Assembly (NCBI GenBank): GCA_964016885.1
Contig: OZ024743.1
Coordinates: forward strand, 265,050,001-265,114,000
Length of the DNA stretch: 64,000 bases
Source: Eledone cirrhosa
Lineage: Eukaryota
Direction: 5' to 3'
Below the pieces are notes generated by a model, which saw nothing but the letters and a program-made list of their open reading frames with translations, was not told the origin of the DNA and did not search any database. This document shows, piece after piece, positions 1,863-62,108 of this stretch. Every line of letters begins with the position of its first letter. Within the stretch, counting starts at the first letter, position 1. A program made the translations under genes and the position numbers.

Positions 1863-1919
1863 CATGAGAAGAAAGAAGAATACTGCGTGGTTGCAAATGG
1901 GTTACATATGATACAAATA

Positions 1920-2021
1920 GTCCTTCCTCAGTGATTTTCTAACCATCATTGGTATTTCATCGCATTAAAAATCAAATACCACTGGTTGGTGCGAGCAATA
2001 AATAAAAATAGTTATTGGGAC
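1920..2021 (-). ncRNA. Candidate non-circularly permuted hammerhead ribozyme, mirror of 2201-2302
   Basis: Reverse complement of 2201-2302; the predicted cleavage triplet here is AUU. Confidence 0.6.
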
Positions 2022-2200
2022 CAGTAATTCGCGTAAAGCGAGGGGGACAAGTGAACAACATAGAAGGATAAAAGCAAACCGAAGATAGGAAAAAAAAAAA
2101 AAATATATATATATATTTTTTTTTTTTTTTTTCCTATCTTCGGTTTGCTTTTATCCTTCTATGTTGTTCACTTGTCCCCCTCGCTTTACGTGAATTACTG

Positions 2201-2302
2201 GTCCCAATAACTATTTTTAGTTATTGCTCGCACCAACCAGTGGTATCTGATTTTTAATGCGATGAAATACCAATGATGGTTAGAAAATCACTGAGGAAGG
2301 AC
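2201..2302 (+). ncRNA. Candidate non-circularly permuted hammerhead ribozyme, copy 1
   Basis: GUCC-[CAAUAAC/GUUAUUG hairpin]-C-UCGCA-C-CAACC-AGU-GGUAU-C-UGAUUUU-UAA-UGCGA-U-GAA-AUACC-AAUGAU-GGUU-AG-AAAAUCA-CUGAGGA-A-GGAC. See findings. Confidence 0.7.
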
Positions 2303-13297: not shown

Positions 13298-13340
13298 GGG
13301 TCATAATGTTTCGGACGCTAGTCCTTCATCAGAAGAAAGA
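13298..13340 (-). ncRNA. Hammerhead-like core in a short pLTR-like relic
   Basis: Minus strand CUGAUGA-A-GGAC-UAGC-GUCC-GAAA-CAUUAUG. Stems I and III are not convincing. A related degenerate copy lies at ~43520-43555. Confidence 0.4.
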
Positions 13341-21569: not shown

Positions 21570-23189
21570 CTAAAAGGAAAAGAAAATGCTGACAAATTGT
21601 TCCCAGTGAAATACAGTTTAATTAGGAATAAGTAAAAATTAGTAATAAGTATTGGTTAGTATTCATTTTTAATTTTAAGTTTTTACCGGTTGAGCATTTC
21701 TAATGTTTTTCAAAAATAATTTCGAGATAGAGAGCCCGTGATGTTTGCTCTAATCTGATTAGTTTTGGAAAATCTACCTGTTTTATGTGAAAAAAGTTTC
21801 GGTTGATTTACTTTAGGGTGTCTAAGGTCCTGGGTACTGAGTTTTAGGGCACGTTGGATTCCATTGTCAATTAGTGATGCAGGGTAGTCCCTGCCTATGA
21901 GTGTGTCCTTTAGTTCTTGTAGCCGTAAGTAACAGGTGTTTTTATTGGAGACTATAGTACAGATTCTATCGGCTAAGTTGTAGGGAATATTAATTTTAAC
22001 GCGTCTATGGTGGCAAGATTTGAAAGGAAGATATTGCTTGGAGTCTGTGGGCTTGTAGTATATGTTTGTTTCTATTTTTTTGTTATAAATCTTAATGAGG
22101 ATGTCGAGGATGGGGAGTTGTTGATGGCTGTATTCCATCGTAAAGTTAATATTCGTATTGAGCCCATTTATAAGGGTATGATATTCTTTAAGTTTTTCGA
22201 TGTTTTCGTGCCAAAGGATGAAGCAGTCATCTAGATATCGCTTCCAGTTCTTTTCTATGTGTAAGTGGAGAGTGTTTCCAAATGTGCTTAGTACTTTAGT
22301 GTAGAGGGTGATTTCCAGGTATCCCATGACTAGGTTGGCATAAGTGGGGGCTGTTTTCGTTCCCATAGCGGTCCCAGATTTCTGCCTGTAGGATTTTTTA
22401 TTGAAAACGAAGTAATTGTTCTCCAAGATAAATTTAGGTCCCTCTATCAGGAATTCTTTTTTGATGCGTTGTGGGAGTTCATTGTGGTAATTATCCAGCC
22501 AGAATTGGATAGCTTCTATTCCTAGGTTGTGGGGGATGTTGGAGCATCGGTTGACTACATCGAACGTCACTAGTAGGGTTTGTTCAGAAATGGGCATATT
22601 AGGGAAGTGATTGAGCATATCTAGGTCGTCCCTTATATAGCTTTTGATGTGTTTGAGAAAAGGCTTGAGAAGGGTATCAATGAAGTTGCTAAGGCGGTGG
22701 GTTTCGCAAGCGGGGCCTGCTATTATAGGTCTTAATTTGAGATCATTGGGTGAGGGGACATTGATGACTATGTCTGTGGCTTCCTTGCATGCCTTACTTA
22801 TTAATTCGCTTTTATGTACTTTAGGGATACCGTAGAAAAGGCTGGATTTACTTGTGAAGTCTGTGATGAAGCTGAATTTCTTGTTAGTGAGTCCTTCTTT
22901 GTATTGGTTGATCAGTGTTTTTAGGTTTCTCATAATTTTCTGTTGATTGTAGTATTCAGCCTTTTCGTAGTATGTTTCGTTTTCCAAAGTGGAGAGCTCT
23001 AAGTTGATATAGAACTTCTGTCTCATTAGGACTACTGTACTCCCTTTACCAGCCTCTTTAATTGTAATGGTTCTGTCGGTTTTTAATCTATTTAATTCTT
23101 CCCATTCTTTCTTGTTGAGGTTTGGCTTTTGTTTTTGTCTGTGCAAGTGTTGGTAAAGGAAGTTTGTGATGTGTTCACAGAATTCACAG

Positions 23190-23195
<6 letters not shown>
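21570..23195 (-). mobile_element. Penelope-like element RT fragment (open frame ~21710-23190), 5'-truncated, no endonuclease
   Basis: Motifs FYGIPKVHK, LRPII, TFDV, QKSGTAMG...APTYANL, KRYLDDCF and YYKPT are typical of PLE RT. The first ~70 aa of the listed ORF are microsatellite. Flanked by (TA)n. Confidence 0.93.
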
Positions 23196-23276
<81 letters not shown>

Positions 23277-24087
23277 TTATATATACATATATATATATGT
23301 ATGTATATGTGTGTGTGTGTTTGTATGTGTATGTGTGTGCGTGCGTGTGCGTGTGCATTGTCTGTGTGTATTTGCCTGTGTGTGTTTATAAACAGAAACA
23401 CTTTCAATATTTAAGGCCAAGAGAGAGATCCATAGTTGGTGAAGGATTAGAGACTATATATTCGTTTGTAAACACCTTTTTATGGCAAGTTATTTCTCTT
23501 CTTCGTTGTAACCAGCTGGTGGTATGACAGACCCTTTCAATTTATGCATTTTGTAATTCAATCTCATTTCCTCACACATTACTCGCAGGAATTCGTGGGT
23601 CACCATATTTTATATCCTCACAATTGCCGGACGAAACGTCAGGTCCATGGCTTATGAAGATTCTTTATTTAATGAACAGTTTTGTTATATAAAAACACAT
23701 TTATGTTAATTCTTCGTCAGATCATATAGATGTTCGAAACTGAACGAACCTGGTCTATAAGTTTATGTGCCATGACTCGAACACGATCCATCCATAATAT
23801 AACAAGTACTAGAAATTTACGGGAATATAAAATGAGACATGATAGAGTGGGACAATACTTACACTGAGTAATGAAGTAACAGGAGGCGAGAACGTAACAA
23901 TTCTCTGCCATTTCTCTGTAAATACAGACAAAACAATCAAGGCCAACTAACCTGATTTAATTGTGAAAGAGAAACTTGTGAATGAGAAAACATGTATTTT
24001 AATTCACATGAGTTTAATTAAACATCTGATTACATCAGATCTTTTTGATACATGATATATAATGCAGCTGGAACTAATGCGTATCAT

Positions 24088-28251: not shown

Positions 28252-29055
28252 TTAACTGTATACTTTGTGAAAAGTTCTATGGAATTTATGCAGGCAGATA
28301 GAAAACAAATCTGTACGTCTATTTATTATAGAATCTAGGTTAGAGATAAAGGTACATTTTTCATTTAGGCAGAGATTACAGATTTTAGATAGAGAGCTGT
28401 TCAAGTATGAGGATGCAGAAGAAACCTTCTTCCAAAAGATGGTATATTTAATGTTTTTGTCTTTTAAGGACCATATGAGTTCTGAGAGAGCAGTGTTGGT
28501 TCTTTTAAGTTTGTATTTGAAAGATGAATGATGATTATAGAGACGAGCTTTAAAAGAGGTGGAAGTGGAGCCAAAATAGGTGAAGGAATTGGTGCTAGTT
28601 ATAATTTTACATTCATAAATTAAGTTTTTATCGAGACAATGGTTGTTGAGAGGACATTTATTTTTAATGCGGCAGTTGCAATTAGAGAGATTATTAATGA
28701 GTGACCTAGTGTTATCTATAGAAGGAATTGGATTGGAGAAGTTGTTTGCGATAGGAATAATAGGAATAATAGTTTCTTGATTTAGAGTTGGATTATGAAC
28801 ATTTAGCGAAGTTGTGTTTGACGTTGTATTAGGGTTTACAGAAGTTAGCCTAGGGTTTACAATGACGTCGGGAGTACTATTACTGTTATTATGAAATTCA
28901 ATGTTGGAAGGAAGAGATTTAGTATTTAGTATTTTATTGTTGTGTTTAGAGATGATGTTGGAAATATTGGAGGATGTGGAATAAGAAAATTTGATGGTGT
29001 GTTTGTTAAATATTTTACTATAGATATGTGAGGGAGGGAAGCATTTATTTATCAC
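28252..29055 (-). pseudogene. PLE linker + GIY-YIG endonuclease, 5'-truncated
   Basis: CNCR...CPL...CL, LIYEC...YFGST...FKARLYNH, LSELIWSLKD and CNLCLNEK. Confidence 0.88.
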
Positions 29056-29831
29056 ATATCTATAGTAAAATATTTAACAAACACACCATCAAATTTTCTT
29101 ATTCCACATCCTCCAATATTTCCAACATCATATCTAAACACAACAATAAAATACTAAATACTAAATCTCTTCCTTCCAACATTGAATTTCATAATAACAG
29201 TAATAGTACTCCCGACGTCATTGTAAACCCTAGGCTAACTTCTGTAAACCCAAATACAACGTCAAACACAACTTCGCTAAATGTTCATAATCCAACTCTA
29301 AATCAAGAAACTATTGTTCCTATTATTCCTATCGCAAACAACTTCTCCAATCCAATTCCTTCTATAGATAACACTAGGTCACTCATTAATAATCTCTCTA
29401 ATTGCAACTGCCGCATTAAAAATAAATGTCCTCTCAACAACCATTGTCTCGATAAAAACTTAATTTATGAATGTAAAATTATAACTAGCACCAATTCCTT
29501 CACCTATTTTGGCTCCACTTCCACCTCTTTTAAAGCTCGTCTCTATAATCATCATTCATCTTTCAAATACAAACTTAAAAGAACCAACACTGCTCTCTCA
29601 GAACTCATATGGTCCTTAAAAGACAAAAACATTAAATATACCATCTTTTGGAAGAAGGTTTCTTCTGCATCCTCATACTTGAACAGCTCTCTATCTAAAA
29701 TCTGTAATCTCTGCCTAAATGAAAAATTTACCATTATCTCTAACCTAGATTCTATAATAAATAGACGTACAGATTTGTTTTCTATCTGCCTGCATAAATT
29801 CCATAGAACTTTTCACAAAGTATACAGTTAA
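29052..29831 (+). pseudogene. PLE linker + GIY-YIG endonuclease, inverted duplicate
   Basis: Near-identical protein to 28252..29055, with a few substitutions (IIP/IVP, CTF/FTI). Confidence 0.88.
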
Positions 29832-36912: not shown

Positions 36913-37454
36913 ATCACTGATGAAGGACTAATTTTATTCATATGTACCCCATTGCAACAAGGCAGCACGCCATTTTTCATATATTTATATTTCCCCTCCG
37001 CTGTGAACTGTCTGTTCCTTTCTTACTGCTTCCCCTTTCTCTGTATCTCTCACCTTCTTTTTACCCCCTCTACCAGTCACTCTCTCTCAGCTGGCCTCTC
37101 CCTCACACTTTCACTCACTCACTCTCTGGTACTGCCTCTCTCTCACTTCCTCCCCTTCTGACCTGTGTGAAATCCTTTTCTCGCTCACATCTCACCCAGG
37201 TCGGATGGTCTGTATCTCTCGTCTATGATTTCACCGAACTTAAGTTCACAGATATCACGGACTTGTTTCTCCTCTTCCTCTCTTTCCGTTGCATTACCAT
37301 CTCTGTTTGTTCACATGTCGCGCTCGCTACACCCTATTTTACGTGTCCCAACAACTTTCTTTAGTTATTGCTCGCACCAACCAGAGGTATATGATGTTTA
37401 ATGCGAAGAAATACCAATGACGGTTTGAAGATCACTGATGAAGGTCTAATTTTA

Positions 37455-37463
<9 letters not shown>
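36913..37463 (+). mobile_element. Terminally redundant 518-bp unit carrying the permuted hammerhead
   Basis: ATCACTGATGAAGG(A/T)CTAATTTTATTCATA occurs at both ends, with CTGATGA at 36917 and 37435. (TA)n on both sides. Confidence 0.8.
37345..37446 (+). ncRNA. Candidate non-circularly permuted hammerhead ribozyme, copy 2
   Basis: Same 102-nt layout. K-turn strands AACC-A-GA-GGUAU and AUACC-AAU-GA-C-GGUU. Core AUA...GAAA...CUGAUGA. A few helix mismatches. Confidence 0.7.
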
Positions 37464-41655: not shown

Positions 41656-41781
41656 TAAAATAACAGAATAAAGTTTAAGCAAAGAATCGCTGCTTTCACC
41701 CTTAACGGGATCTTCTGAAACTAACAAAGTCAAGCTGTAAACGCAGAACTGGATATTTCAAAAAACGTTGCAACCGGAGGA

Positions 41782-42334
41782 ACTTGCACATAACATCACA
41801 GCTTCAAATTTAGCTAAAATACCTAGCCGTAGGAACACGTGCAACCCTGTAGTTAGTACTAACTGTAATTGTAGGAATCGGGCTGATTGTCCCCTATCCG
41901 GGAAATGCCTCTCTAGTAACATTGTCTACAAATGTAAGGTTGTAACACCCACGTCCCGTAGGGCCTACATAGGGTTAACCGCCAATAGTTTCAAGCAGCG
42001 TCTTTACATGCATACCCATTCTTTTCGTTACCCTCTAAGAAGGAATATGACGTCACTTTCAGCTTATATCTGGAGTCTAAAAGACAACCACACCCAATAT
42101 AAGTTACACTGGGAGATCCTAGCTAGGGCTAGATCGTATTACGGAAATAAAAGACCATGTGACCTCTGCGCCGCTGAGGCCCTGGAAATACTCTACGCCA
42201 CAGACCACATCTTAACAAAAAATCTGAGGCAATTTCGGCTTGTAAACATAAATTGCACAAAACTTTCCTGTATTACAGCCCTACGTTATACCCTAACGGA
42301 TAGCACGATCTATACGTGGATATTTACGTCTTGA
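41782..42334 (+). pseudogene. PLE GIY-YIG endonuclease fragment
   Basis: CNCRNRADCPLSGKCL, IVYKC...YIGLTANSFKQRLYMH, LSAYIWSLKD and CDLCAAE. Confidence 0.9.
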
Positions 42335-46102: not shown

Positions 46103-46145
46103 GTAATCTACGCGTTTCATTCTTATTAGAAATCTTCAGGACTAC
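46103..46145 (-). ncRNA. Type I hammerhead, first of 18 minus-strand array copies
   Basis: GUAGUC-CUGAAGA-U-UUCU-AAUA-AGAA-U-GAAA-CGCG-UA-GAUUAC. Further copies start at 47187 + 310n up to 49357 and at 50441 + 310n up to 52921. Confidence 0.9.
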
Positions 46146-46168
46146 ATATCCAGTGCTTTTATCGAGAA

Positions 46169-46942
46169 CTAGCAGTAAAGCCCGGCCTTGCTCGGGGTCG
46201 CTCAGTAGCTGTGTTAAAGTTACAATGTTAAGTTTCTTTTTTGGCTTAAAAACTGTAGTGTCTACTGTGCAGACTTGCATGTGGTGTTTTTGATTAATAT
46301 TCCCTCAACCAACAATATGCCTTATGAAGTTAAGAAAACATAACGATAACCCGAATGTTATAACAAAAGAGGATGCTGGGGATAAAAACTGCACTGGTTA
46401 TTTATTAACAAAGATCGAAAATGTAAACACTGCAACGCAGAGAAAAACATTAGCGTAACCAAATTATCAGTTATGTCTGTCTGCACGCCTATATCACCTC
46501 TCTGCACGACTGTCTGTCTGCACGCCTGAAATATTTGCTTGTTTTACGTAGTCTTTAAATAGACTTGTTTTCAAGTAAAAATATTGTTTTAAAATGCTTT
46601 TAAATGGAAATGAAGCAAAACGGAAGCTTAGTGTTCGAATGTTCGTGTATTGTGTTAATGTCATTTTAAACGCTGAGAAAGCCAGCGTAATTTTTTACGT
46701 AAGACGCTCAATGTAAACAGAACAAAGGGAAATAACTGATAACTTACGCTCAAAAATCGATACATTATATTCGATTTCGTCACATAGGGTGGGTCAATTT
46801 GAAATATTTTTTTTCCGATGTCTTCGCTAGGGCTCAATGTACAAGTATAGCAATTTCGGTGCAATTCCGTGAGAGATTCTAGGAGGAGATGTGTGCCAAA
46901 AATCGTTCGACAGACAGACAACCACAGTTTTATATATATAGA
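46169..46942 (-). mobile_element. 774-bp non-autonomous Helitron inserted in an array monomer
   Basis: Minus strand 5' TCTATATATATAAAACTG ... CCCGAGCAAGGCCGGG-CTTTACTG-CTAG 3'. Empty monomers show an A^T target and no TSD. Confidence 0.93.
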
Positions 46943-49422
46943 TGACACAGCTAGAGACTTATAGAATACTTAGATGTGTACAGGAACTGGTTTGAAAGAG
47001 CGGTTGCCGGTCCGGCAGAAATTAGAAATTGGAATAAATGCTCTGAAATAGCTATATATATGTGAATATAGACATAGAATATTCGAAAATATTCTGTATG
47101 TTTATAATAAACATTTTGAAGACCTAATCGCTATAGAATAGAATACGTCACGTATTACAATTAGATTCTCGATAAAAGCAAGGGAAGTAATCTACGCGTT
47201 TCATTCTTATTAGAAATCTTCAGGACTACATATCCAGTGCTTTTATCTAGAATGACACAGCTAGAGACTTATAGGATACTTAGATGTGTACAGGAACTGG
47301 TTTGAAAGAGCGGTTGCCGGTCCGGCAGAAATTAGAAATTGGAATAAATGCTCTGAAATAGCGATATATTTGTGAATATAGACATAGAATATTCGAAAAT
47401 ATTCTGTATGTTTATAATAAACATTTTGAAGACCTAATCGCTATAGAATAGAATACGTCACGTATTACAATTAGATTCTCGATAAAAGCAAGGGAAGTAA
47501 TCTACGCGTTTCATTCTTATTAGAAATCTTCAGGACTACATATCCAGTGCTTTTATCGAGAATGACACAGCTAGAGACTTATAGAATACTTAGATGTGTA
47601 CAGGAACTGGTTTGAAAGAGCGGTTGCCGGTCCGGCAGAAATTAGAAATTGGAATAAATGCTCTGAAATAGCGATATATATGTGAATATAGACATAGAAT
47701 ATTCGAAAATATTCTGTATGTTTATAATAAACATTTTGAAGACCTAATCGCTATAGAATAGAATACGTCACGTATTACAATTAGATTCTCGATAAAAGCA
47801 AGGGAAGTAATCTACGCGTTTCATTCTTATTAGAAATCTTCAGGACTACATATCCAGTGCTTTTATCGAGAATGACACAGCTAGAGACTTATAGAATACT
47901 TAGATGTGTACAGGAACTGGTTTGAAAGAGCGGTTGCCGGTCCGGCAGAAATTAGAAATTGGAATAAATGCTCTGAAATAGCGATATATATGTGAATATA
48001 GACATAGAATATTCGAAAATATTCTGTATGTTTATAATAAACATTTTGAAGACCTAATCGCTATAGAATAGAATACGTCACGTATTACAATTAGATTCTC
48101 GATAAAAGCAAGGGAAGTAATCTACGCGTTTCATTCTTATTAGAAATCTTCAGGACTACATATCCAGTGCTTTTATCGAGAATGACACAGCTAGAGACTT
48201 ATAGAATATTTAGATGTGTACAGGAACTGGTTTGAAAGAGCGGTTGCCGGTCCGGCAGAAATTAGAAATTGGAATAAATGCTCTGAAATAGCGATATATA
48301 TGTGAATATAGACATAGAATATTCGAAAATATTCTGTATGTTTATAATAAACATTTTGAAGACCTAATCGCTATAGAATAGAATACGTCACGTATTACAA
48401 TTAGATTCTCGATAAAAGCAAGGGAAGTAATCTACGCGTTTCATTCTTATTAGAAATCTTCAGGACTACATATCCAGTGCTTTTATCGAGAATGACACAG
48501 CTAGAGACTTATAGAATACTTAGATGTGTACAGGAACTGGTTTGAAAGAGCGGTTGCCGGTCCGGCAGAAATTAGAAATTGGAATAAATGCTCTGAAATA
48601 GCGATATATATGTGAATATAGACATAGAATATTCGAAAATATTCTGTATGTTTATAATAAACATTTTGAAGACCTAATCGCTATAGAATAGAATACGTCA
48701 CGTATTACAATTAGATTCTCGATAAAAGCAAGGGAAGTAATCTACGCGTTTCATTCTTATTAGAAATCTTCAGGACTACATATCCAGTGCTTTTATCGAG
48801 AATGACACAGCTAGAGACTTATAGAATATTTAGATGTGTACAGGAACTGGTTTGAAAGAGCGGTTGCCGGTCCGGCAGAAATTAGAAATTGGAATAAATG
48901 CTCTGAAATAGCGATATATATGTGAATATAGACATAGAATATTCGAAAATATTCTGTATGTTTATAATAAACATTTTGAAGACCTAATCGCTATAGAATA
49001 GAATACGTCACGTATTACAATTAGATTCTCGATAAAAGCAAGGGAAGTAATCTACGCGTTTCATTCTTATTAGAAATCTTCAGGACTACATATCCAGTGC
49101 TTTTATCGAGAATGACACAGCTAGAGACTTATAGAATACTTAGATGTGTACAGGAACTGGTTTGAAAGAGCGGTTGCCGGTCCGGCAGAAATTAGAAATT
49201 GGAATAAATGCTCTGAAATAGCGATATATATGTGAATATAGACATAGAATATTCGAAAATATTCTGTATGTTTATAATAAACATTTCGAAGACCTAATCG
49301 CTATAGAATAGAATACGTCACGTATTACAATTAGATTCTCGATAAAAGCAAGGGAAGTAATCTACGCGTTTCATTCTTATTAGAAATCTTCAGGACTACA
49401 TATCCAGTGCTTTTATCGAGAA

Positions 49423-50196
49423 CTAGCAGTAAAGCCCGGCCTTGCTCGGGGTCGCTCAGTAGCTGTGTTAAAGTTACAATGTTAAGTTTCTTTTTTGGCT
49501 TAAAAACTGTAGTGTCTACTGTGCAGACTTGCATGTGGTGTTTTTGATTAATATTCCCTCAACCAACAATATGCCTTATGAAGTTAAGAAAACATAACGA
49601 TAACCCGAATGTTATAACAAAAGAGGATGCTGGGGATAAAAACTGCACTGGTTATTTATTAACAAAGATCGAAAATGTAAACACTGCAACGCAGAGAAAA
49701 ACATTAGCGTAACCAAATTATCAGTTATGTCTGTCTGCACGCCTATATCACCTCTCTGCACGACTGTCTGTCTGCACGCCTGAAATATTTGCTTGTTTTA
49801 CGTAGTCTTTAAATAGACTTGTTTTCAAGTAAAAATATTGTTTTAAAATGCTTTTAAATGGAAATGAAGCAAAACGGAAGCTTAGTGTTCGAATGTTCGT
49901 GTATTGTGTTAATGTCATTTTAAACGCTGAGAAAGCCAGCGTAATTTTTTACGTAAGACGCTCAATGTAAACAGAACAAAGGGAAATAACTGATAACTTA
50001 CGCTCAAAAATCGATACATTATATTCGATTTCGTCACATAGGGTGGGTCAATTTGAAATATTTTTTTTCCGATGTCTTCGCTAGGGCTCAATGTACAAGT
50101 ATAGCAATTTCGGTGCAATTCCGTGAGAGATTCTAGGAGGAGATGTGTGCCAAAAATCGTTCGACAGACAGACAACCACAGTTTTATATATATAGA
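49423..50196 (-). mobile_element. Second copy of the 774-bp Helitron at the same monomer position
   Basis: Appears identical to 46169-46942. The offset is 3254 = 8x310 + 774. Confidence 0.93.
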
Positions 50197-53130
50197 TGAC
50201 ACAGCTAGAGACTTATAGAATACTTAGATGTGTACAGGAACTGGTTTGAAAGAGCGGTTGCCGGTCCGGCAGAAATTAGAAATTGGAATAAATGCTCTGA
50301 AATAGCTATATATATGTGAATATAGACATAGAATATTCGAAAATATTCTGTATGTTTATAATAAACATTTTGAAGACCTAATCGCTATAGAATAGAATAC
50401 GTCACGTATTACAATTAGATTCTCGATAAAAGCAAGGGAAGTAATCTACGCGTTTCATTCTTATTAGAAATCTTCAGGACTACATATCCAGTGCTTTTAT
50501 CGAGAATGACACAGCTAGAGACTTATAGAATACTTAGATGTGTACAGGAACTGGTTTGAAAGAGCGGTTGCCGGTCCGGCAGAAATTAGAAATTGGAATA
50601 AATGCTCTGAAATAGCGATATATTTGTGAATATAGACATAGAATATTCGAAAATATTCTGTATGTTTATAATAAACATTTTGAAGACCTAATCGCTATAG
50701 AATAGAATACGTCACGTATTACAATTAGATTCTCGATAAAAGCAAGGGAAGTAATCTACGCGTTTCATTCTTATTAGAAATCTTCAGGACTACATATCCA
50801 GTGCTTTTATCGAGAATGACACAGCTAGAGACTTATAGAATACTTAGATGTGTACAGGAACTGGTTTGAAAGAGCGGTTGCCGGTCCGGCAGAAATTAGA
50901 AATTGGAATAAATGCTCTGAAATAGCGATATATATGTGAATATAGACATAGAATATTCGAAAATATTCTGTATGTTTATAATAAACATTTTGAAGACCTA
51001 ATCGCTATAGAATAGAATACGTCACGTATTACAATTAGATTCTCGATAAAAGCAAGGGAAGTAATCTACGCGTTTCATTCTTATTAGAAATCTTCAGGAC
51101 TACATATCCAGTGCTTTTATCGAGAATGACACAGCTAGAGACTTATAGAATATTTAGATGTGTACAGGAACTGGTTTGAAAGAGCGGTTGCCGGTCCGGC
51201 AGAAATTAGAAATTGGAATAAATGCTCTGAAATAGCGATATATATGTGAATATAGACATAGAATATTCGAAAATATTCTGTATGTTTATAATAAACATTT
51301 TGAAGACCTAATCGCTATAGAATAGAATACGTCACGTATTACAATTAGATTCTCGATAAAAGCAAGGGAAGTAATCTACGCGTTTCATTCTTATTAGAAA
51401 TCTTCAGGACTACATATCCAGTGCTTTTATCGAGAATGACACAGCTAGAGACTTATAGAATACTTAGATGTGTACAGGAACTGGTTTGAAAGAGCGGTTG
51501 CCGGTCCGGCAGAAATTAGAAATTGGAATAAATGCTCTGAAATAGCGATATATATGTGAATATAGACATAGAATATTCGAAAATATTCTGTATGTTTATA
51601 ATAAACATTTTGAAGACCTAATCGCTATAGAATAGAATACGTCACGTATTACAATTAGATTCTCGATAAAAGCAAGGGAAGTAATCTACGCGTTTCATTC
51701 TTATTAGAAATCTTCAGGACTACATATCCAGTGCTTTTATCGAGAATGACACAGCTAGAGACTTATAGAATATTTAGATGTGTACAGGAACTGGTTTGAA
51801 AGAGCGGTTGCCGGTCCGGCAGAAATTAGAAATTGGAATAAATGCTCTGAAATAGCGATATATATGTGAATATAGACATAGAATATTCGAAAATATTCTG
51901 TATGTTTATAATAAACATTTTGAAGACCTAATCGCTATAGAATAGAATACGTCACGTATTACAATTAGATTCTCGATAAAAGCAAGGGAAGTAATCTACG
52001 CGCTTCATTCTTATTAGAAATCTTCAGGACTACATATCCAGTGCTTTTATCGAGAATGACACAGCTAGAGACTTATAGAATACTTAGATGTGTACAGGAA
52101 CTGGTTTGAAAGAGCGGTTGCCGGTCCGGCAGAAATTAGAAATTGGAATAAATGCTCTGAAATAGCGATATATATGTGAATATAGACATAGAATATTCGA
52201 AAATATTCTGTATGTTTATAATAAACATTTCGAAGACCTAATCGCTATAGAATAGAATACGTCACGTATTACAATTAGATTCTCGATAAAAGCAAGGGAA
52301 GTAATCTACGCGTTTCATTCTTATTAGAAATCTTCAGGACTACATATCCAGTGCTTTTATCGAGAATGACACAGCTAGAGACTTATAGAATACTTAGATG
52401 TGTACAGGAACTGGTTTGAAAGAGCGGTTGCCGGTCCGGCAGAAATTAGAAATTGGAATAAATGCTCTGAAATAGCGATATATATGTGAATATAGACATA
52501 GAATATTCGAAAATATTCTGTATGTTTATAATAAACATTTTGAAGACCTAATCGCTATAGAATAGAATACGTCACGTATTACAATTAGATTCTCGATAAA
52601 AGCAAGGGAAGTAATCTACGCGTTTCATTCTTATTAGAAATCTTCAGGACTACATATCCAGTGCTTTTATCGAGAATGACACAGCTAGAGACTTATAGAA
52701 TATTTAGATGTGTACAGGAACTGGTTTGAAAGAGCGGTTGCCGGTCCGGCAGAAATTAGAAATTGGAATAAATGCTCTGAAATAGCGATATATATGTGAA
52801 TATAGACATAGAATATTCGAAAATATTCTGTATGTTTATAATAAACATTTTGAAGACCTAATCGCTATAGAATAGAATACGTCACGTATTACAATTAGAT
52901 TCTCGATAAAAGCAAGGGAAGTAATCTACGCGTTTCATTCTTATTAGAAATCTTCAGGACTACATATCCAGTGCTTTTATCGAGAATGACACAGCTAGAG
53001 ACTTATAGAATACTTAGATGTGTACAGGAACTGGTTTGAAAGAGCGGTTGCCTTTCAAACCAGTTCCTGTACACATCTAAGTATTCTATAAGTCTCTAGC
53101 TGTGTCATTCTCGATAAAAGCACTGGATAT

Positions 53131-53173
53131 GTAGTCCTGAAGATTTCTAATAAGAATGAAACGCGTAGATTAC
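53131..53173 (+). ncRNA. Type I hammerhead in the inverted end of the array (second copy at 53441-53483)
   Basis: GTAGTC CTGAAGA TTTCTAATAAGAAT GAAA CGCG TA GATTAC, enclosed by the 16-bp stem ATTCTCGATAAAAGCA/TGCTTTTATCGAGAAT. Confidence 0.9.
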
Positions 53174-53604
53174 TTCCCTTGCTTTTATCGAGAATCTAAT
53201 TGTAATACGTGACGTATTCTATTCTATAGCGATTAGGTCTTCGAAATGTTTATTATAAACATACAGAATATTTTCGAATATTCTATGTCTATATTCACAT
53301 ATATATCGCTATTTCAGAGCATTTATTCCAATTTCTAATTTCTGCCGGACCGGCAACCGCTCTTTCAAACCAGTTCCTGTACACATCTAAATATTCTATA
53401 AGTCTCTAGCTGTGTCATTCTCGATAAACGCACTGGATATGTAGTCCTGAAGATTTCTAATAAGAATGAAACGCGTAGATTATTTCCCTTGCTTTTATCG
53501 AGAATCTAATTGTAATACGTGACGTATTCTATTCTATAGCGATTAGGTCTTCAAAATGTTTATTATAAACATACAGAATATTTTCGAATATTCTATGTCT
53601 ATAT

Positions 53605-57421: not shown

Positions 57422-57713
57422 TATATACATACACACACATATATATGTATATGTAATATTAAAGCAAAAAGTTATGTTACTGCATTCTTAACCTCATTTT
57501 TATCCTTCGGTTTTTCTCGATTATTTCAGTTGTCATATATTCCAATTATCTTTGGCGCCTTGTATCTAAATATACCTTTCTTTAGTAACATAGACTGCTT
57601 GTCATGCTCATGCACACACACACAAAAATACACAAAACACACTCACGCGCGCGTGCACGCACACAAATACAAACATATATATATGTTACTCTGGCGTCCC
57701 CCTTTATTTACGT

Positions 57714-57815
57714 GTCCCAACGACTTTTTTTAGCCGTTGTTCGCACCAACCCGAGGCATATGGCCCTTAAAGCGATGAAATGCCCAGGACGGTTGGAGGG
57801 TCACTGATGAAGGAC
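57714..57815 (+). ncRNA. Candidate non-circularly permuted hammerhead ribozyme, copy 3 (most GC-rich)
   Basis: GUCC-[CAACGAC/GCCGUUG]-U-UCGCA-C-CAACC-C-GA-GGCAU-A-UGGCCCU-UAA-AGCGA-U-GAA-AUGCC-CAG-GA-C-GGUUG-G-AGGGUCA-CUGAUGA-A-GGAC. Confidence 0.75.
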
Positions 57816-57870
57816 TCACTTTTTCATATGTATCCCATTTGCAACGCCGCAGCTCCATTATTATCATATT

Positions 57871-60402: not shown

Positions 60403-62108
60403 GACCACTGTAGCCTACTTGAATTATTCCCCTATTATAAAATCAACAAAGGTTACGGCCTACTACCAATGCCTTCCAACCACATCTTCCTATACATAAA
60501 CATAGCAGAAGGAAGAAGAGTGCACCTGAGCATAAAGCGTAAGGGACACGTAACGGGGAACGGCGAATTAACATCCATAAGAACGGTCACCCTGATAGCA
60601 CTACACGTAGCAAACGTACTAAGACACGTAATCGCCACCGTAACGTCCTATGGTTCCATCCCACCTACTCTCGGAGTGTGGCCTCCGACATACCGGATAT
60701 TCTTCGAAGTCTTAGAGAAGAACTTGCCACCCATCCAGAGGTATAGGAAAATCCTTAATAGGAACAATATAAAAATATCCTTCTCTACTACTCCTAACCT
60801 AGCAGACATCATAGGAACAATCACAGTAAGATCACCAAGACACAGCACCTTAACACAGACGCACCTACACCTGACAACAACTATATCGGCCTTAACGACT
60901 CCCTAGCAGCATACAATATTGCTGGCAACAGCCTCTACAGACGCAACCAACACAAGCGCGACTTGACTGGGGAATATGCAAGTGACCCGCACGGGTCACC
61001 CGGCAGCAACGGAAGACTCTGCTGCGTGCAGATTAATAATGGTACACCCCACGCAAAGTGGGTTATAATGGTCCTAATTACAGATGTGGGAGCGTAGGTA
61101 ACAACGTAGATAGCAATAATAATAGCCTTACTGTGGGAGCTAGAAGGGACCGCGACCGAAATTGCAACTCCCGCGACAGGGGACGCTGCCTCCTTAGCGG
61201 AAACTGCTTGACTGATAGAATTATATATAGGTGCACCGTAACTAGCCATAATAGCGTTAAACATTATATAGGGGCTACCTCTGGCCCTTTTAAAATAAGA
61301 TTTCAAACACATCTCCACTCTTTCACAAATAAGAAATTAAGACACTCCACATCGCTCGCGAACTACATCACAGCATTAAAAGACTTAAACATCAGCTTCT
61401 CCACACACTAGGAAATCTTCGGCAGGGCTGCACCGTACAAATTCAAGAGGAAGTGCGAGCTTTGCCTCATGGAGCTCTACTACATCATAACGGCACCCTA
61501 CGAGCTCATCAACAGAAGAGCTGAAACGACGATAAGCTGTACACACCGCTTAAAAATATCCTACTTCAGATGGAATAAGAACGAAAGGTACCGTAAACCG
61601 GGTCTCCCTGCACCAAGCTTTAACACCCCGGCGGGCAGGCGCTGCTAAAAACATCCGGAAGCTAACCATGCATCCAAGACCCGGCATGAATCGACCCAAG
61701 CGGGCAGGCGCAGCAAACAAACGTCTCGAAACAAACGTTGCATACCTCACCCTGTGCGTATCGGCAATGGTAAGGTAGTAACCACTTGCTTCTATCGGAT
61801 AAAAAATTTGTTCGGAAAAGACTGCCCTAACACCGGCCAGAGTTATCTCCCTTGACCTACTGCAAAATCAAAACATGTTTTTTTACGAAGAATGAACTCT
61901 CACGTGAACTTATCTCTAAAAACCAATTCCGGGTCATGTAAGGAACGCTTTTTAGTTATTATGCCCTTGAGAAGCCCATTCGGGCGAAACGTACGTAGGT
62001 GCTATTTTAAATAAACATGTTTTAACGGTCTGTACTCCTGTATTTTACTTCTCCACGTGCTTACGCTCTGCAAATTCTCCATATTAACACTTCCAATATT
62101 TAACATTG
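60402..62108 (+). mobile_element. Degenerate 5'-truncated PLE (linker + GIY-YIG + pLTR)
   Basis: YRKILNRNNIKISFSTTPNL; RIIYRC...HYIGATSGPFKIRFQTH; then CELCLME after a stop. Eroded HHR at 61961-62002 (GCCC-AUUC-GGGC-GAAA-CGUACG-UA). TA flanks. Confidence 0.85.

Follow-up and report, generated by a model that had tools for sequence, protein, structure and literature searches.

Kink-turn modules in the window

The window, as we call the whole 64-kb stretch of Eledone cirrhosa DNA that was analysed, holds four full copies of one repeat (1903-2058 on the reverse strand, 2164-2319, 37300-37460, and 57707-57833) and a partial copy at 36913. Read 5' to 3', copy 2 presents a cleavage block (GGUAU-A with the helix I 3' strand), then GAAA with the helix III 5' strand, and then the helix I 5' strand with CUGAUGA (Table 1). 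This S-G-C block order is that of the type-SGC hammerheads described by Eckert et al. 2023 (PMC10085705), and with the order of cleavage block, GAAA, and CUGAnGA come an intact core with A15.1-U16.1 and H17 and covarying stems I and III. The window's family also carries the features by which a standard kink-turn (K-turn) is recognized, namely a 3-nt bulge 3' of a canonical helix, G1b·A1n and A2b·G2n pairs, and a paired non-canonical arm.

A prior sequence-only reading had proposed this K-turn pairing for copies 2 and 3, and both are found letter for letter in the window sequence. Its stem and arm pairing is real, but the arm is 6 bp long rather than 4-5, with a conserved C-G closing it. The GA-to-GU change that it had seen on one strand of copy 1 is likewise present; it lies on the non-bulged strand and is private to copy 1 and its inverted twin, their subfamily having GA. 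Copy 2 is decayed, with private changes in the arm, helix I, and closing helix, and the subfamily of copy 3 is very young (40 of 40 hits 100% identical among the matches listed).

At gathering thresholds, Rfam gave no match anywhere in the window, and single-strand folding energy is unremarkable (z from -1.2 to +0.1), which is no surprise in a pseudoknot with sheared pairs. The score of the three window copies is 14-16 of 16 stem pairs; under the same scoring, a viral-contig control with 79 stretches matching a loose pattern had none of 80 matches reaching 13 of 16. The combined hammerhead and K-turn pattern in the window is not a chance occurrence.

Table 1. Coordinates of the K-turn modules and associated features, in window positions
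Feature	Position	Strand	Basis or remark
K-turn module, copy 2	37377..37427	+	sequence, covariation, and copy tabulation
Copy 2 K-turn, 5' side	CCAACC 37377-82; 3n A 37383; GA 37384-85; GGUAU 37386-90	+	sequence
Copy 2 K-turn, 3' side	AUACC 37411-15; bulge AAU 37416-18; GA 37419-20; 3b C 37421; GGUUUG 37422-27	+	sequence
Copy 2 non-canonical arm	37377-82 with 37422-27	+	6 bp
Copy 2 3n/3b	37383/37421	+	C·A
Copy 2 tandem G·A pairs	37384-85 with 37419-20	+	
Copy 2 canonical helix (hammerhead helix III)	37386-90 with 37411-15	+	
Predicted cleavage site, copy 2	37391..37392	+	after A17 of GGUAUA; hammerhead-core analogy and junction footprint
Helix I, copy 2	37392..37434; 37392-98 with 37428-34	+	pseudoknot versus helix III; one mismatch in copy 2
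Core blocks in permuted order, copy 2	GAAA 37408-11, then CUGAUGA 37435-41	+	23 nt apart
Outer scaffold, copy 2	37345..37446	+	by eye; equivalent helices with other letters in distant families; without statistical count
Outer scaffold helices	GUCC 37345-48 with GG(A)C 37443-46; hairpin 37349-70; UCGC 37372-75 with GCGA 37403-06	+	
Outer scaffold junctions	four-way at stem II base; three-way at helix I far end		read by eye
Whole insertion of copy 2	36913..37459	+	5'-truncated partial tandem, 518-bp unit, non-coding, between (TA)n tracts
K-turn module, copy 3	57746..57796	+	bulge CAG; 3b·3n C·C
K-turn module, copy 1	2233..2283	+	private A1n-to-U change
Inverted twin of copy 1	1903..2058	-	same private A1n-to-U change

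The window is rich in related material. Conventional minimal Penelope-type hammerhead motifs lie at 13332(-), 13682(-), 16287(-)/16421(+), 20631(-)/20815(+), 27217(-)/30870(+), and 55157(+), and the one at 13332(-) has the stem II letters A-GGAC/GUCC of the permuted family, a hint of shared origin. Both strands of 46139-53447 carry tandem units of ~310 bp, the array being inverted near 53.0 kb, and each unit carries a retrozyme-like minimal hammerhead-like motif, CUGAAGA...GAAACGCG. Frames at 21710-23410(-), 28252-29831(-), 41741-42334(+), and 61040-61411(+) have motifs that suggest a Penelope-like reverse transcriptase or GIY-YIG-like identity. Upstream of the repeat, the search for a coding partner with a reverse transcriptase frame was negative among the matches listed for loci L001-L190 and in 64 upstream stretches of distant families. 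Elsewhere in the genome, one locus (L137; G000:C1:43917000-43925000) strings together nine or more nearly identical copy-3 units, each ~740 bp long.

Conservation of the K-turn across the genome

To place the window copies in the 3.0-Gb genome, we used patterns blind to the K-turn, in which the core and just three or four bases next to it were specified. The pattern GAAA-N20-TCACTGATGAA had 8,981 matches against 5 for its control, and two further K-turn-blind patterns had 2,019 (control 58) and 2,088 (control 89), with little overlap among the three; the count of one further pattern was uninformative (857 versus 835 in the control), and just its listed sequences were used. Conservation was tabulated for loci L091-L220, taken from the first listed matches of the K-turn-blind patterns and comprising 141 distinct copies; 25 of these, most of them truncated or rearranged, were excluded, which left 116 intact in register. 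G2n is present in 115 of the 116 intact copies, A1n in 112, G1b in 113, A2b in 115, and all four in 107, while bulge positions L1 and L3, together with 3b and 3n, differ between subfamilies, so that the earlier observation of a variable bulge beside constant GA/GA pairs holds on this larger sample. Within the contigs of run X1, variants at a frequency of at least 5% occur at L1-L3, 3b, and 3n, and none at the four G/A bases.

Because the copies are related, comparison between families is the stronger test of conservation. Two old families (L264-288 and L289-313), whose helix III, helix I, and arm sequences are all different, keep the GA/GA motif, with A1n in 25/25 and 24/25, A2b in 25/25 each, G1b in 23/25 each, and G2n in 17/25 each. 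Among 16 hand-picked family representatives, neither G1b nor A2b varies more than the catalytic core bases do. Pairing in this alignment reaches 94.7% over the arm, helix III, and helix I, and 16 of 18 pairs have changed on both sides: helix III is 96% paired, the 6-bp arm is 98% paired with double-sided changes at five of its six pairs, and all seven pairs of helix I show such changes. The covariation score is 0.81 against 0.28 for shuffled alignments (0 of 500 shuffles reach it) and at most 0.23 for slid controls, with the proviso that relatedness inflates counts of this kind.

It is highly unlikely that GA/GA is simply inherited repeat sequence without a structural role, an explanation that these data largely refute. 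Though the copies share ancestry, their folding energy is ordinary, and the originally flagged copy 2 is in decay, the four bases are retained between families even where every flanking stem has undergone compensated change, and the changes that do occur at the G/A bases obey the known tolerance of K-turns, with 2n going first, as in Kt-23. The K-turn identity assigned by the sequence-only reading therefore holds both within the window's family and across families with different stems. Judged by base identity and covariation, the motif is a real, conserved K-turn sequence set in a new architecture of a known ribozyme type.

As portrayed in the available parts of PMC5061560 and PMC4382518, standard K-turns of the Kt-7/SAM-I riboswitch type share with this motif the 3-nt bulge, the G·A and A·G pairs, C:G at -1, and a non-Watson-Crick 3b·3n, and they too are used to set up tertiary closure. 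The present motif differs in that its canonical helix is a ribozyme core helix, its 3b·3n position spans seven non-Watson-Crick states, and its 4b:4n pair is mostly G:C, which is slightly unfavourable and lowers folding somewhat.

The predicted ring and its plain-bulge relatives

A continuous stem II between blocks G and C is absent: at most one pair forms, A-U, or G-C in one family, or A·A in the subfamily of copy 2, and a four-way junction follows. The 3' strand of the arm enters helix I with a 0-nt linker, and the remaining strands meet a third short helix (UCGC/GCGA) that continues stem II. A single three-way junction thus receives the ends of the arm, helix I, and stem II, and together with the core and the K-turn it outlines a ring. 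In the mechanism that we propose, helix III, the 9-step K-turn arm, and helix I would form this closed ring, with the kink held by Mg2+ and by the ring itself. A stick model with 2.8 Å per pair and an I-III angle of 115-155 degrees, an assumed rather than measured value, closed the ring in 75-90% of draws when the kink was set to 40-60 degrees; from 80 degrees upward, no more than 1% of draws closed. The earlier suggestion that the kink turns helix III back toward helix I is thus supported by the absence of a linker and, within the limits of a rough geometric model, by closure of the ring.

At the base of stem II, the L207, L206, and L217 families and the Naiad_Obim end show A-U, G-C, A·A, or no pairing, and the partner of C11.1 comes from an upstream strand, which splits the core at a junction assumed to be unbreakable.

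According to the available parts of PMC10085705, the type-SGC ribozyme HRIMA-1 and its variants share the S-G-C order, the full core, pseudoknotted stems I and III, and a short link from stem I toward stem II. In the present RNA, by contrast, the chain returns through a K-turn arm, stem II gives way to a four-way junction, and the surrounding element is an animal retroelement. In the crystal structure the far end of stem III lies distant from those of stems I and II, and how this is accommodated was left open by Eckert et al. (PMC10085705, in part); the stick model, though rough, offers an answer.

Some relatives have an altered K-turn or none. One family (L206, L229, and L232) has U at 2n with A1n kept. 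The distant CATC clade, with 376 matches against 3 in its control, mostly lacks the G·A/A·G pairing, so that conservation of GA/GA across genomic copies, proposed by the sequence-only reading as a check, holds in the window's family and fails in this clade: the first 100 of the 376 matches, read by eye, have UA at 2n,1n in 45, UC in 48, GA in 1, and other combinations in 6. With UC, both G·A pairs become Watson-Crick and a plain 3-nt bulge remains; the SAM-I K-turn is disabled by this same A1n-to-C change. A·U at 2b·2n with A1n kept, found in two distant families here, is also the state of Kt-23 as described in part in PMC2790904, a K-turn with further non-canonical pairs of its own, so that the likeness lies in 2b·2n and A1n. 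Other published Naiad ends, among the supplementary sequences at hand, by eye have, in the position of the K-turn, a bulge that is plain and 3 nt long, large, or just 1 nt long. Given these altered and plain-bulge clades and the Naiad ends, the K-turn is the commonest solution and not the sole one.

In the plain-bulge clade the linker is one base longer and helix I is shorter, yet at ordinary bulge angles the stick model still leaves the ring open; by the same model, monomers of the Naiad ends with plain, large, or 1-nt bulges should not close either. The model may be overly rigid, or these forms work in some other way, perhaps by fraying or as swapped dimers. A shifted K-turn register for this clade was rejected since it breaks helix III or the arm. 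Separately, a sub-lineage (L226, L227, L233, and L236) carries 6 inserted nt across from the bulge, which could fold into a loop resembling a reversed K-turn.

The existence of plain-bulge and near-straight relatives, the occurrence of the units in tandem, and the reported cleavage of minimal Penelope hammerheads as dimers (PMC5785218) would all suit a strand-swapped dimer between tandem units, in which the K-turn is an optional bend that does not enable the fold. We nevertheless consider such a dimer quite unlikely, given that the most numerous and the youngest families all keep the K-turn and that GAAA and CUGA are 23 nt apart in all families found (partly by design of the patterns) and in two octopus Naiads.

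Protein dependence, cleavage, and the host element

The sequence-only reading had gone on to suggest that cleavage could depend on the K-turn-binding proteins L7Ae/15.5K, and on this point the data lean the other way, as the local sequence fits the rules of protein-free folding (PMC4382518, in part; PMC5689011). By the table of PMC4382518, as far as it was available, 83 of the 116 copies have a 3b·3n combination that folds well in Mg2+ (U·G 33, C·U 31, A·G 15, and C·C 4), 16 are middle folders (U·U), and 17 are poor ones (A·A 15 and G·A 2); the C·A of copy 2 is a good folder. Watson-Crick 3b·3n, the signature of the protein-dependent U4 K-turn, occurs in none of the 116, against 34 expected from the margins, an absence that is weak at the level of lineages (7 states, P ~0.07; copies related). 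C at -1b (114/116) and G at -1n (111/116) make up the C:G pair, which determines protein-free folding most strongly and which box C/D has inverted (PMC5689011). The pairs typical of U4 (Watson-Crick 3b·3n) and of box C/D (G:C at -1b·-1n) turned up neither in the window's family nor in the distant families. U:A at -1, a predicted weak folder, is present together with U·U at 3b·3n in two distant families and in the octopus Naiads. Tertiary context alone rescues weak K-turns in SAM-I, and in our model the K-turn would sit in a closed tertiary ring.

L7Ae reads G1b and G2n, and L7Ae-family binding is expected for most consensus K-turns; by analogy, binding of 15.5K in vivo is plausible, and 15.5K/Snu13 may bind many copies and could modulate them, though it would likely not be required. 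A stricter version, in which efficient cutting occurs just when 15.5K/Snu13 or another L7Ae-family protein binds and cleavage is so tied to a host factor, gains from the retention of G1b and G2n in the large families, from the box C/D-like AUGAUG/CUGA of the copy-1 subfamily, from the predicted weak folding of the families with U·U and U:A at -1, the octopus Naiad ends among them, and from the thought that a protein could matter at physiological Mg2+. Set against this are the lack of any lineage with the U4 or box C/D pairs, the change of G2n to U in two clades, and the loss of both G·A pairs in another, a related clade having amplified with either state, as well as the protein-free cleavage of published SGC ribozymes (PMC10085705, in part). 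We therefore regard such a switch as unlikely, a protein requirement for the K-turn of the window's family as unlikely too, and a retrotransposon ribozyme switched by 15.5K/Snu13, with lineages tuning their dependence via 3b·3n and -1b·-1n, as a doubtful proposition; if true, it would be the first natural protein-gated hammerhead and would explain how Naiads time RNA processing. A box C/D snoRNA reading was rejected, as the likeness is confined to one subfamily and the -1 pair is wrong.

We propose instead that the K-turn is probably a protein-independent hinge on the type-SGC helix III of a non-coding Penelope-like repeat, letting one RNA form the predicted self-cutting fold. Junctions in the genome bear on the cutting itself. 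Genome-wide, 22 head-to-head inversion junctions were classed by eye. In 15 of them the longer arm stops at the predicted cut (0 to +3 nt, within microhomology); of the remainder, four end one base short and three are shorter, and none runs further upstream, though up to 11 more bases would have been visible. This stop is an indirect sign, read from sequence, that cleavage may take place. In a local sample, about 7 of 19 truncation events fall at the predicted cut, three of them against (TA)n, with microhomology as a confounder. Six loci share one junction at which the upstream copy ends exactly at the predicted cut, which is probably a single ancestral event.

The repeat has the traits of Naiad Penelope-like elements (Craig et al. 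2021, PMC8557442, in part), with partial tandems, inverted 5'-truncated copies, and (TA)n targets, inverted fragments being frequent, but differs from them in that the window's element is non-coding. In our proposal, a Naiad-type partner would retrotranspose the repeat by way of the RNA ends that the cut leaves. Read by eye from the available portion of the PMC8557442 supplement, the 3' ends of Naiad_Obim and Naiad_Ovul repeat this fold with every stem changed in sequence: the bulge is 3 nt long, GA/GA and U·U are present, and GAAA and CUGAUGA stand 23 nt apart. In the available text of that study, Naiads are reported without canonical hammerheads, some being flagged as having half a core. Several further Naiad 3' ends (parts 13-16 of the supplement) read by eye as type-CSG permuted hammerheads. 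Naiads can carry SECIS elements, and a SECIS reading of our motif was rejected by eye, as the spacing does not fit and the GA pairs abut the hammerhead core. Animal non-LTR retrozymes are likewise non-coding tandem hammerhead repeats tied to Penelope-like elements, but they carry conventional type I hammerheads, unlike the type-SGC of the window (bioRxiv 10.64898/2026.07.22.740005 and PMC7229834, both in part).

Our literature search, the coverage of which lay largely outside subscription journals, had no natural hammerhead with a K-turn among the titles listed. The terms 'kink' and 'k-turn' have no match in Perreault 2011 or in the available text and supplement text of PMC10085705, the alignment figures of which may contain an unnamed G·A motif, and these terms and 'SGC' have none in the available text of bioRxiv 10.64898/2026.07.22.740005.

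The arrangement places a K-turn inside a natural small ribozyme. For non-circularly permuted hammerheads, whose geometric problem had stayed open, the hinge would offer a concrete solution. An L7Ae-bindable hinge beside a ribozyme core could serve as a ready scaffold for protein-responsive switches, and the genome holds a natural allelic series (GA, UA, and UC at 2n,1n; seven 3b·3n states) with which the folding rules of K-turns could be tested with cleavage as readout. For the elements themselves, the permuted fold would help explain why Naiads have been scored as without hammerheads.
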